Positions 51,799 to 56,165 of a DNA stretch of 64,000 bases are shown here, piece after piece. This DNA is from Firmicutes bacterium UBA3570 (GTDB lineage: Bacteria > Bacillota > Sulfobacillia > UBA3561): the NCBI GenBank assembly GCA_002376005.1, contig DFNJ01000022.1, positions 42,434 to 106,433 on the forward strand, given 5' to 3'. The position numbers and the translations under genes are program-made. The notes under the pieces were generated by a model, which ran no database searches, was not told the origin of the DNA, and worked only from the letters and a program-made list of their open reading frames with translations. Within the stretch, counting starts at the first letter, position 1, and each line of letters opens with the position of its first letter.

Positions 51799-52320
51799 TT
51801 ACTGAATCTCCACGTCGAACGCTCCGTGGCGACGGAGGATCTGGGCCGCCCGTAACAGGCGATCCTCTTGGGACCGAACTATAACCAGCACATTCCCTTC
51901 CTTCACGCGCCTTTCGTAGTGTCGGGCCCGCTGGTCCGGCAACCCCAGGTCCACCAGTCCACCGGCGATACCCCCGCTGACCGCGCCAGCCACCGCCGCG
52001 GTGATGGGACCAGCTGCCAGAACTGCACCCACACCAGGTACCGCCACCGCACCCATACTGGTCACCAATCCCCCGAAGGCTCCCGCTAGGGTTCCGTTGA
52101 GGGTGCCATCGGCGTAGCCGATCTCCTCCTGGCCTACCGCAGCCTCGCGGGCTTCTGCACTTGCCCCCGGTGGCCGCTCCGGACGCCTGGCAACAAGGGA
52201 GATTTCCTCCGGGCCCAACCCCTCCTCCCACCGGAGGTCGTGCAGCGCTTCTCGCGCCTGGTCCGCAGCCCGGAACACGCCTGCGAGCGTCTTCGTCACC
52301 GGCTGCTCGCTCCTTTCCAT
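51799..52320 (-). CDS. General stress protein 17M / YflT-like (DUF1269, glycine-zipper C-terminus)
   Basis: N-terminal AGVFRAADQAREALHDLRWEEGLGPEEISLVARR and Gly-zipper segment; start trimmed to MERSEQ. Confidence 0.55.
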   Translation of the reverse strand: MERSEQPVTKTLAGVFRAADQAREALHDLRWEEGLGPEEISLVARRPERPPGASAEAREAAVGQEEIGYADGTLNGTLAGAFGGLVTSMGAVAVPGVGAVLAAGPITAAVAGAVSGGIAGGLVDLGLPDQRARHYERRVKEGNVLVIVRSQEDRLLRAAQILRRHGAFDVEIQ

Positions 52321-52333
52321 CAGCTTCCGAAGC

Positions 52334-52582
52334 CTAGTGTGACCCCGGCTGCTTTTCCCTATGCCGAGCATCCGTGGGACATATTTGCGCAAATACGGTC
52401 CCCAGACCCAGGCGAAGGAACGTCCCCGGTGAGACCAGTACTACCATGCCGGCCTTCCAGCGCTCCGGTGGGCTCAGATGGAGGCACAGGCAGCCGTTCT
52501 CCATGGTAGCTGCGCGTATCATTCCCACGACTTCGCCCCTGCCAAGGTCCACCAGCTGCCGGTGCTCCAGCTGCTCCGGCAT
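52334..52582 (-). CDS. Putative PRC-barrel small protein, YlmC/YmxH-like (82 aa); not in the ORF track as a separate gene
   Basis: Fits exactly between the membrane-protein gene and the YflT-like gene; pattern LVDLGRGEVVGMIRAATMENGCLCLHLSP resembles the YlmC/YmxH PRC-barrel motif; B. subtilis has ymxH directly upstream of spoVFA; GGAGTGA RBS 8 nt upstream. Confidence 0.3.
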   Translation of the reverse strand: MPEQLEHRQLVDLGRGEVVGMIRAATMENGCLCLHLSPPERWKAGMVVLVSPGTFLRLGLGTVFAQICPTDARHREKQPGSH

Positions 52583-52590
52583 ACTTCCGG

Positions 52591-52926
52591 TCACTCCTTG
52601 GGTCGCGCCCCAATGGGTAGGTATGGCTGGAGAACGGCCAGGAGGAAAGAGAATGCAGCCAACGGGTCGAACTTGAATGTTCCCCATTGGACCTCGCGAG
52701 GGATGTCCAGGGACAGGAATGCCCCCAGCGCCATCAAAACCAGGTATACGCCTCCGGCCACCGCCACCCAATCTCGAATGGCGTTGCTCAGCACCGATTC
52801 CCTGGGTTCGACGGGAAAGTCCTTTTCTTTTGGGTACAACCGCGTGTAGTTGCTGATTCGACGGCGCATGGAGCACACAAAGAGCACCAGCACCACCACT
52901 GTGGGCAAAATCCAGTCAAAAGACAT
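52591..52926 (-). CDS. Hypothetical small membrane protein (111 aa, 3 TM)
   Basis: Start MSFDWILPTVVVLVLFV with GGGGGTGA RBS 5 nt upstream; track ORF over-extended. Confidence 0.4.
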   Translation of the reverse strand: MSFDWILPTVVVLVLFVCSMRRRISNYTRLYPKEKDFPVEPRESVLSNAIRDWVAVAGGVYLVLMALGAFLSLDIPREVQWGTFKFDPLAAFSFLLAVLQPYLPIGARPKE

Positions 52927-53042
52927 GCCATCACCCCCGCAACCATAATATGTAGCGCGAGAGTGCGGGATGATGGCACCGGCGCGGGCAGGAAAAAAGC
53001 AGAACCGATACCGGTCCCGCCCGGAAAGAACCAAAATGTCAG

Positions 53043-53219
53043 TCAGGAATGCTTCCGCTTGAGATACTGAACGATCAGGGCATCCAGCTGGCGACTCACT
53101 TCGCGCACTTCCAGGTGGTTGAAGCTCCTTTTCTGATGATTGATCAGGTTGTGCAATCGGCCTCTCAATTCCTCCATACGTCGAACCATCTCCGCTTCGC
53201 TCAGATGACGCTGGGGCAA
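53043..53219 (-). CDS. Spo0E-family sporulation regulatory protein (aspartyl-phosphate phosphatase-like), 48 aa from ATG 53189 or 58 aa from TTG 53219; absent from the ORF track (<60 aa)
   Basis: Hand translation: (MPQRHLSEAE)MVRRMEELRGRLHNLINHQKRSFNHLEVREVSRQLDALIVQYLKRKHS; matches Spo0E family pattern; GGGAGAGG RBS upstream of TTG. Confidence 0.5.
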   Translation of the reverse strand: MPQRHLSEAEMVRRMEELRGRLHNLINHQKRSFNHLEVREVSRQLDALIVQYLKRKHS

Positions 53220-53336
53220 TTGTCCTCTCCCTTTCTTACTTGATGTAGGTGTGCGTGTATCAAGGGAAAGTTGAAAGCTCCGCTCATCATCCTCCAGCTT
53301 GTGGCCTCCTCGCGGCTACCGCTCCCCCCTCCCTTC

Positions 53337-53802: not shown

Positions 53803-55299
53803 TCATGGCCCCTTCCACGGTCCTAACCGGGTCCCCGGGTAGAAAAACTGAAGAATCTGGCCGTGCGTCCACCCGTCCAGGGCCAGACCTTGGGCCCCCC
53901 ACTGGCTCATGCCCACCCCGTGGCCGAAACCATCACCCCAGAACACCCAGAGCGGCTCCTGCCTCGTACAGTAAGAAACCCCCAGCGCGGGAGCCGGTAC
54001 CAGGCGCGTGATGCGCACAGGGTCACCCGCCGGCAGGACGGCTGCCACTTGGGCGGCCGACATGCCCAGTATCATGGTCCTTTCTTGTCCTTTGGCCACT
54101 TCCCAGAATCCGCTTCGCACCCGGGTGGCCCCGATGGCCGACCTCAGGCGTTCTGCTGAGACCACGTATTGCCCAGAAGGCGTAACCAGGCTGACGCGGC
54201 GCACCCTGCCGCTGGGAAACCATTGCAACACGTTGAATTCGACCAGCGGTCCCTCCACCTCCTGCCTTACCACTCGGGCCAGAGCCTGCAGCAGTTCCAC
54301 CTCGGGCAGCATCCAGCTCCATAGACGGGGCGGTTCGGCGGGCACAGGCCGCCCGCGGAGATACGGCACCGCGCTGCCCCATATCTGCTCGGCATCCTCA
54401 GTGCGCCCGCCGGCGTGGGCGTGGTAGACGGTATCCGCCAGTCGATCCCCAAACCACAGCACGACACCCTGGGTGTCCTTCACCGCCCGGTCCGTGCGCG
54501 GATGTTCCCTCCCCGCTCCCGCGTATACCTGGCAGTGGGTGCCGTCACACAGGTCGAAGCCCTCATGACGACCACCAGCCACACAGTGGCGAAGCGCATA
54601 GGTGCGCGCGGCAATGGCCTGCGCCTTCAGGGCTTCCAGGGGCCACTCCGCGGGCATCTCCGCCGGCACCACGCCCCGCAGGTACGCCTCCAGGTCCACC
54701 TCGTTGATTACCTGTACTGTTCCGTCCGGCAACCCCCAAATGTGCACCTCACCACGGTATTGACGCCCATCCACGGTGAAGGACGTCCCGCTGGCCCGCA
54801 CGAGCTCCCCCACCCTGGAGACGGGTTGCAGGGCGCCCCCGCGCCAGCTTATGGTGAGCTCCCCCTCCGGATGGTACGCCCAGACCACCCTTGCCGGGAT
54901 GCCCGCTTGCTGCGCCTGCTTCGCCGCACTCCACGCCTCGCTGCCACTGACGAAGGGACCGAGGTAGGCGATCCAGCTCCCCTGGAGATACCGGTAAGTC
55001 ACCGGCAGCTCTACACTGCCCAGTGCCTCAGCCATCTGCTGTGCGACCCACCGGGGTCCCGACCGCCCCAGCTGCACCATAGCCCGGGCCAGCCCCACCC
55101 ACACCCAATCACCCGGTGCCAGAGCTACGGTGTCGCCCCCGGGAAGCACCAGCTGAGCCCCAGCGGGAAAGCCCAAGCTGACGGCAGCACGCCCGCTCCC
55201 CAAGCCCACCTGCAGGGTTCGTGCCTCGCTGGGGACCGCAGCCATGGTCAGCCACGTGATGATGATGGCAGCCACCAACAGAGCACGCGCGCCGCTCAT
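53803..55299 (-). CDS. SpoIID/LytB-domain protein (cell-wall lytic transglycosylase/amidase-enhancer family)
   Basis: SpoIID-domain segment ...EAYLRGVVPAEMP...EALKAQAIAARTYAL... plus C-terminal signature GHGVGMSQWGA; signal/TM at N-terminus; start trimmed to MSGARALL (ATGA coupling with nfo). Confidence 0.75.
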   Translation of the reverse strand: MSGARALLVAAIIITWLTMAAVPSEARTLQVGLGSGRAAVSLGFPAGAQLVLPGGDTVALAPGDWVWVGLARAMVQLGRSGPRWVAQQMAEALGSVELPVTYRYLQGSWIAYLGPFVSGSEAWSAAKQAQQAGIPARVVWAYHPEGELTISWRGGALQPVSRVGELVRASGTSFTVDGRQYRGEVHIWGLPDGTVQVINEVDLEAYLRGVVPAEMPAEWPLEALKAQAIAARTYALRHCVAGGRHEGFDLCDGTHCQVYAGAGREHPRTDRAVKDTQGVVLWFGDRLADTVYHAHAGGRTEDAEQIWGSAVPYLRGRPVPAEPPRLWSWMLPEVELLQALARVVRQEVEGPLVEFNVLQWFPSGRVRRVSLVTPSGQYVVSAERLRSAIGATRVRSGFWEVAKGQERTMILGMSAAQVAAVLPAGDPVRITRLVPAPALGVSYCTRQEPLWVFWGDGFGHGVGMSQWGAQGLALDGWTHGQILQFFYPGTRLGPWKGP

Positions 55300-56165
55300 A
55301 CCGTCAGCTCCCGCGGTGGCTCCGGCAGGGTCAACAGCCACCGCAGACGTCTCAGGTTGCGGGCATCATCCCGGACATCCTTCTTAGGGGTCTCGATGAC
55401 CGCAGGTAGCCCCGAGAACTCCGGTCGACGCAGGAGATACCAGAACGCAGCCGGCCCTAACGCCCCCAGCCCTATTTCCTGGTGCCGGTCGCGGCGGCTT
55501 CCCAGTCCCGCCCGCGAGTCGTTTAAATGGATCAGCCGCACTGCCTCCAACCCCACGTGCCGCCGCACCTCGCTCAGGAAGGCGTCCCATCCTTCCTCCG
55601 TCCTCAGCTCATAACCGGCGGCAAAAGCATGACAGGTATCCAGACATATTCCCACTGCCGGTCCGCCCCGCAAGGCCCGCAGCAACCAGCCCAGCTCCTG
55701 GAGGGTGCTTCCCAACTCGTTGCCTTGCCCCGCAGTGTTCTCCAGTAGTAGCACCGGTAGTTGCCTGGCCTCGCCACTCATCTCCCATGCCTCCCGCAGG
55801 GATTGAACCACCCTCTCGAGGCCCGCTGCGCGGTCTCCTCCCGCGTGACCCACGTGGGTTACCAGCGCTACCGCTCCCAGCACCGCCGCCCGCCGCCAAT
55901 CTTCCGCCAGCAGTCGAACGGCCGCATAGCGCTTTTCCTCGGCCTCTGCTGCCAGGTTGAGGATGTAGGGGGTGTGAACGAACAAAGGCCCGCGTTCCAG
56001 CATCTCCTGCCGGAAGCGGACCACCTCCTCTCTTACCAGGGGCCGGGCGGGACCGCCGCGCGGACTGCGGGAGAACACCTGCACCGCCTCACACCCCAGC
56101 ATGGCAGCGGTGGCCGCCACCTGGAGCCAACCTTTCCCGATGGACAGGTGAGCGCCGAGCAACAC
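55296..56165 (-). CDS. nfo: Endonuclease IV (Nfo, AP endonuclease family 2)
   Basis: 289 aa; LLGAHLSIGKG start, Zn-ligand motifs (HxPYxxNLA, HAGG, CLDTCHAFAAGY, IHLNDS). Confidence 0.85.
   Translation of the reverse strand: MLLGAHLSIGKGWLQVAATAAMLGCEAVQVFSRSPRGGPARPLVREEVVRFRQEMLERGPLFVHTPYILNLAAEAEEKRYAAVRLLAEDWRRAAVLGAVALVTHVGHAGGDRAAGLERVVQSLREAWEMSGEARQLPVLLLENTAGQGNELGSTLQELGWLLRALRGGPAVGICLDTCHAFAAGYELRTEEGWDAFLSEVRRHVGLEAVRLIHLNDSRAGLGSRRDRHQEIGLGALGPAAFWYLLRRPEFSGLPAVIETPKKDVRDDARNLRRLRWLLTLPEPPRELTV

Follow-up and report, generated by a model that had tools for sequence, protein, structure and literature searches.

A short gene between dut and the dpaAB region encodes a very probable Spo0E-family protein in a Bacillota genome

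Gene organization of the locus

The stretch of DNA analyzed here, referred to as the window, spans 64 kb at a G+C content of 64%. On its minus strand it carries a small gene (53043..53219) that begins with TTG, ends with TGA, and codes for a protein matching the Pfam family PF09388. The reading frame is uninterrupted from the TTG at 53219 to the TGA at 53045-53043 and its product is MPQRHLSEAEMVRRMEELRGRLHNLINHQKRSFNHLEVREVSRQLDALIVQYLKRKHS (58 aa). According to the ORF list, this TTG is the first possible start downstream of an in-frame stop. Re-reading the DNA returned exactly the coordinates, strand, start codon, stop codon, and 58-aa translation given in the original prediction. The gene had also been described as unannotated and as missed by automated annotation. 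The first description holds for the ORF track of the first stage, which had a 60-aa cut-off, but not for public assemblies: an identical 58-aa gene, with a precomputed PF09388 match and without a product name, is present on at least seven public contigs (JGI, ENA, NCBI, Logan). Public contigs with the gene include some of 157-158 kb, and the source samples are JGI 3300032190 and 3300032171. The second description has to be abandoned because public gene callers already predict the 58-aa gene.

The neighborhood is rich in sporulation genes, as had been proposed, and domain matches identify its members. Upstream lies dut, whose product is a dUTPase (PF00692, E 3.5e-31). Other neighbors encode a SpoIID-domain protein (E 3.9e-32), DpaA (DpaA_N, E 1.3e-16), and DpaB (flavoprotein domain), and an ftsK/spoIIIE gene lies further downstream of the Spo0E-like gene. 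Across the window, the genes are ordered infB ... ribF-rpsO-pnp ... dpaA-dpaB-aspartokinase (dapG)-dapA-rnj-ClpP-like-uppP-ftsK/spoIIIE, an order that mirrors the same region of the B. subtilis chromosome. The gene order together with the dpaAB and SpoIID genes marks the host as an endospore-forming member of Bacillota.

The host appears to belong to an uncultured and poorly represented spore-forming lineage. Among the best 80 loci listed for the dUTPase from 185,579 species-representative genomes, none carried a dUTPase more than 66% identical to that of the window. These 80 loci came from many phyla, and none had a Spo0E-like ORF nearby. Likewise, no syntenic orthologue of the Spo0E-like gene was found among the dUTPase loci listed, in a metagenome scan with the subfamily profile A2, or among matches to a degenerate DNA pattern.

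Several flanking genes differ in how their starts have been called. The next gene downstream encodes, from an ATG at 52926, a protein of 111 aa that has two to three hydrophobic segments and for which no Pfam or NCBIfam family was found. This is the product given by the public callers, and its ATG has a strong Shine-Dalgarno (SD) sequence, GGGGGUGAUGG (-16 kcal/mol). The mechanical ORF, in comparison, is a 147-aa frame from a TTG (52591..53034, minus strand) that overlaps a terminator-like hairpin and has almost no SD (-3.6 kcal/mol). Between this membrane protein gene and dpaA are two uncharacterized genes (about 51799..52580, minus strand; L001 6638-6886 and 6900-7421). One encodes 82 aa and has no family. 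The other encodes 173 or 197 aa, with a start that differs between public calls, and its product gives sub-threshold matches to the heat-induced stress protein YflT and to the glycine-zipper type DUF1269. Ambiguity also surrounds the start of the SpoIID-domain gene (53803..55341, minus strand). Its mechanical ORF of 512 aa begins with a GTG that has a poor SD (-2.9 kcal/mol) and overlaps the upstream AP-endonuclease gene by 46 nt. The product given by public callers has 498 aa. The N-terminal part of this protein shows a weak SPOR-domain match below threshold.

Transcription signals

A terminator-like hairpin (52989..53022, minus strand) was detected downstream of the Spo0E-like gene by a consensus scan and RNA folding. 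It has an 11-bp stem and a 4-nt loop, is followed by a U run, and begins 21 nt past the stop codon. Its folding energy is -19 kcal/mol, with a z-score of -2.15 relative to shuffled sequences. Upstream, a 117-nt spacer (53220..53336, minus strand) separates the dut stop codon from the TTG. The consensus scan found no recognizable sigma-70 promoter or terminator in this spacer, and folding found no stable structure (z-score -0.18). Across the whole 64-kb window, there were no tRNA or rRNA genes and zero matches to Rfam families. The sequence CGTCGAA at 53179, inside the ORF, matches the 0A box at 6 of 7 positions and was treated as a chance occurrence.

Expression of the gene is inferred. Its transcription would most likely come either from read-through out of the closely spaced genes upstream (AP endonuclease, SpoIID-like, and dut) or from an unrecognized promoter in the 117-nt spacer, and would end at the hairpin just past the stop codon.

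Family membership and relatives

The 58-aa protein is almost certainly a member of the Spo0E family. The HMM search against PF09388 (SpoOE-like), which had been suggested as a check of the original prediction, was positive, scoring 40.6 bits (E 2.5e-10) against a curated gathering score of 23 bits. The match places residues 13-54 on profile positions 3-42, covering 40 of the 42 positions. Against the NCBIfam models, the protein matched 0 families at E<=1. Nevertheless, its relatives are named Spo0E family proteins by NCBI.

These relatives were found with the profile A3, which retrieved 102 proteins, nearly all of them with PF09388. Where an informative name is given, it is in most cases "aspartyl-phosphate phosphatase Spo0E family protein" or the equivalent. 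Their hosts include Bacillus, Shimazuella, Planifilum, Desulfofundulus, and Pelotomaculum, among others. The query alignment for A3 took in an aligned fragment of 2bzb, a protein of B. anthracis, and the many matches from the Bacillus cereus group are partly due to that fragment. Four of the 61-aa PF09388 proteins (P0067, P0081, P0083, and P0086) carry the JGI name "two-component system, cell cycle response regulator", which looks misleading for a Spo0E-like hairpin protein.

Close relatives are few. An exhaustive HMMER search of 1.84 billion representative proteins at E<=1e-3 returned the protein itself, two true relatives, and one spurious match. The true relatives both have PF09388 and are P0003 (63 aa, 50% identical to the 58-aa protein) and P0004 (93 aa, 42% identical). 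The spurious match, P0002, is a repeat protein of 1009 aa without PF09388 whose score is a sum of weak repeated matches, and it was rejected as a relative. The metagenome scan with the A2 profile gave no matches. A degenerate DNA pattern for RQLDxLIVQY led to four further small ORFs with PF09388. The highest identity of the protein to anything else found was 53%. It is a somewhat divergent member of a well-known family that, like its motif and its fold, is already well described.

The relatives sit in unrelated genomic contexts. P0003 and P0008 (63-64 aa; L083 4892-5083, L088 2376-2570, and related loci) form an orthologue group of their own with a conserved context, in which a MarR-type regulator, a FabA-like dehydratase, and the Spo0E-like gene are followed by a gene for a 92-aa unknown protein, unlike the context in the window. 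P0047 (L109 6001-6255) is an 84-aa Spo0E-like relative from a distant organism, 51% identical in a BLASTP local alignment. Its gene comes after an AgrB-like gene and a histidine kinase gene, and lies 2.6 kb upstream of dapB-dpaA-dpaB-asd (L109 7958-10356). DpaA and DpaB of that locus are 39% and 51% identical to those of the window. The proximity to dpaAB that P0047 has in common with the window gene may be a coincidence, because the contexts of the other relatives are unrelated.

Signature motif and predicted fold

The Spo0E-family signature is SxxxD, which in B. subtilis reads SQELD (PMC11115286). In the window protein it is S42-R-Q-L-D46, encoded at 53082..53096 on the minus strand. S42, L45, D46, and L48 are invariant in the alignments A3 and A4, both of which include the aligned stretch of 2bzb (SRDLD). 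The signature aspartate is critical in B. subtilis Spo0E (PMC11115286; Diaz et al. 2008, cited in PMC3035606). By analogy, D46 is the presumed catalytic aspartate.

An AlphaFold (AF2) model of the 58-aa protein (pLDDT 83.7) predicts helices at residues 8-28 and 36-57. This is the two-helix hairpin expected of the Spo0E family, and the SxxxD motif falls in the N-terminal half of predicted helix 2. Members of the family are about 40-100 aa long and fold as two loop-connected antiparallel alpha-helices, the second of which carries the motif, and the window protein agrees with this description in both size and predicted fold. Together, the PF09388 score, the SxxxD motif, the predicted hairpin, and the size uphold the proposed assignment to the Spo0E-like family.

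The only significant PDB sequence match of the subfamily profile A2 was 2bzb_A (E 0.0038), in which SRDLDKLI aligns with SRQLDALI of the window protein. The PDB title of this entry is "conserved domain protein". We take 2bzb to be BA1655, whose structure was solved along with one other by Grenha et al. 2006 (ref. 15 in PMC11115286). It took the A2 profile to find this entry; a single-sequence phmmer search against the PDB returned only coiled-coil noise. Fold searches with the predicted model were non-discriminating; 2bzb was not among their top matches because generic helical hairpins swamp the list.

Coding status and translation start

An ORF of 58 aa is not beyond chance in DNA of 64% G+C. 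Within 6 kb, 85 ORFs reach a length of 30 aa or more, and the antisense strand over 53043..53219 carries an overlapping 64-aa ORF. The coding call therefore rests on homology and not on length. Could the frame be a chance ORF in G+C-rich DNA that encodes no protein? Besides the abundance of similar-sized ORFs nearby, the antisense one included, its GC3 of 0.66 lies somewhat under the 0.70-0.76 of its neighbors. However, the PF09388 score exceeds the curated cut-off by 17 bits, the invariant signature residues are common to the solved family member 2bzb, and the hairpin is predicted with confidence. Furthermore, a ribosome-binding site and a terminator bracket exactly the frame at 53043..53219, and a control search of the antisense 64-aa ORF gave zero Pfam family matches. 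A chance ORF is extremely improbable, and the HMM and motif results already effectively refute it.

The base composition of the ORF was compared with its surroundings. Its G+C content is 53%, below that of the window, and this lower value is largely due to a charged, helical amino-acid composition (GC2 0.31). The gap in G+C relative to the window and the neighbors is not significant at 59 codons.

Evidence of coding constraint came from relatives. The window is 100% identical to the JGI contig Ga0326344_1000127 (28 kb) over the 6 kb compared, and a variant contig (L002) that is 99.7% identical to the window has no substitutions within the Spo0E-like ORF, so that it yields no dN/dS information on the window's own gene. 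The two closest relatives with DNA sequence, P0003 and P0008, differ from each other by a dS of about 1.0 and a dN of about 0.12, and dN/dS is about 0.12. Purifying selection in the subfamily is clear from this pair, which does not include the window's own gene.

The coding frame appears to be translated from the TTG at 53219. The SD region AGAAAGGGAGAGG (53224..53236, minus strand) ends 4 nt before the TTG, and its core GGGAGAGG (53231..53224) had been named in the original prediction as the ribosome-binding site. The duplex with a Firmicute-type anti-SD tail is predicted at -11.6 kcal/mol, in line with the neighboring genes, which range from -11.6 to -16.0 kcal/mol, with dut at -13.5 and dpaA at -11.6.

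Alternatively, the gene could be real but translated from an internal ATG, either M11 at 53189 (48 aa) or M15 at 53177 (44 aa). As a start codon ATG is stronger than TTG, and the ATG at 53177 is preceded by an SD-like sequence, GGAGAUGGU, with a duplex of -12.0 kcal/mol. The 44-aa form would keep its PF09388 match (39.2 bits), and some members of the family have just 48-49 aa. However, E8 and A9 lie upstream of both ATGs and are invariant in the closest relatives (A2), and residue 8 is also where predicted helix 1 begins. The GGAG before the ATG at 53189 directly adjoins it, with no spacer (-7.6 kcal/mol), and a start at M15 would clip the beginning of the Pfam domain, which is matched from residue 13 onward. 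Moreover, wherever the gene is on record in public assemblies, it is called from the TTG as the 58-aa product. An internal start is unlikely on this evidence.

Comparison with characterized Spo0E-family proteins

The window protein resembles Spo0E, YisI, and YnzD of B. subtilis in several respects. It is small (58 aa, compared to about 55-85 aa), matches PF09388 above threshold, has an SxxxD motif with the aspartate at the start of helix 2, and is predicted to form a two-helix hairpin. Its host is likewise, as far as its genes tell, an endospore-forming member of Bacillota. Unlike the B. subtilis SQELD, its motif is SRQLD, which differs at motif positions 2 and 3, and it lacks the long C-terminal extension found in the 85-aa Spo0E of B. 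subtilis (PMC11115286). Its gene is also set apart from the B. subtilis members in that it lies between dut and the dpaAB region and belongs to an uncultured lineage of 64% G+C.

The motif SRQLD is close to the SRDLD of the solved 2bzb, to judge by the alignment. This B. anthracis protein has a similar length (62 aa) and the same S-R-x-L-D-x-L-I stretch, although identity over the aligned stretch is only about 29%.

Another likeness is to C. difficile Spo0E (53 aa), also a Spo0E-family protein of minimal length with SxxxD. C. difficile Spo0E represses sporulation and has been modelled as contacting the receiver domain of Spo0A via both helices (PMC11115286). The Spo0E family is regarded as species-specific, and the C. 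difficile protein has additional partners and species-specific interfaces (PMC11115286). It binds the RRNPP regulator RstA, whereas no RstA-like partner or comparable context is seen in the 64-kb window.

Proposed function

Spo0E-family proteins are aspartyl-phosphate phosphatases that act on Spo0A~P (PMC3035606). For the window protein, the best explanation by analogy is that it is a negative regulator that dephosphorylates Spo0A~P through hairpin docking and hydrolysis at D46, and this is probably correct. The product would be a small cytoplasmic protein folded as an antiparallel two-helix hairpin. By analogy with Spo0E, YisI, and YnzD of B. subtilis and with the B. anthracis homologues, the hairpin would dock on the receiver domain of Spo0A~P. 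D46 of the S42-x-x-x-D46 motif would then promote hydrolysis of the aspartyl phosphate. As a result, the level of Spo0A~P would fall, and entry into sporulation would be delayed or its threshold raised.

Does the protein act on Spo0A~P? It could be a genuine Spo0E-family protein that is not, or not only, a Spo0A~P phosphatase. Its partner could be an RRNPP/TPR-type regulator or a different response regulator. It could also inhibit Spo0A without catalysis, by obstructing the site of phosphorylation. Precedent comes from C. difficile, where Spo0E binds RstA besides Spo0A, has a Spo0A-independent control over toxin and motility, and fails to cross-complement Spo0E of B. subtilis (PMC11115286). 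Members of the family also occur in non-sporulating taxa (PMC11115286), and the explicit catalytic mechanism of the family has been described as unknown (PMC3035606). The window protein itself lies on a sparse, divergent branch with 2-3 true relatives at E<=1e-3 among the 1.84 billion representatives, and tblastn found neither Spo0A nor any receiver-domain gene in the 64-kb window. On the other hand, conservation is strict at S42 and D46 of the catalytic motif as well as at L45 and L48 beside them, and the endospore genes in this genome (dpaAB, SpoIID domain) make Spo0A an expected component. In addition, no target class other than Spo0A has been established by experiment in bacilli (PMC3035606). 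Another partner or a non-catalytic mode of action is considered unlikely, and the specific role as a Spo0A~P phosphatase, which is drawn by analogy, remains the fairly likely one.

A more far-reaching possibility is that the protein represents a sparse, deep-branching Spo0E subfamily, perhaps with a non-Spo0A partner or a functional coupling to the adjoining dipicolinate (dpaAB) region. Such a subfamily would be recognized by two stretches, LH-N-L of helix 1 and SRQLDxLIVQY of helix 2, and would have only a handful of relatives among the representative proteins searched. This proposal is quite doubtful.

With Spo0A~P as its probable target, the 58-aa protein would add one putative regulator that restrains the start of sporulation to the genes listed for this uncultured spore former of high G+C, a gain of small practical value. 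The gene is also confirmation that genuine regulators can go unseen under a 60-aa ORF cut-off.
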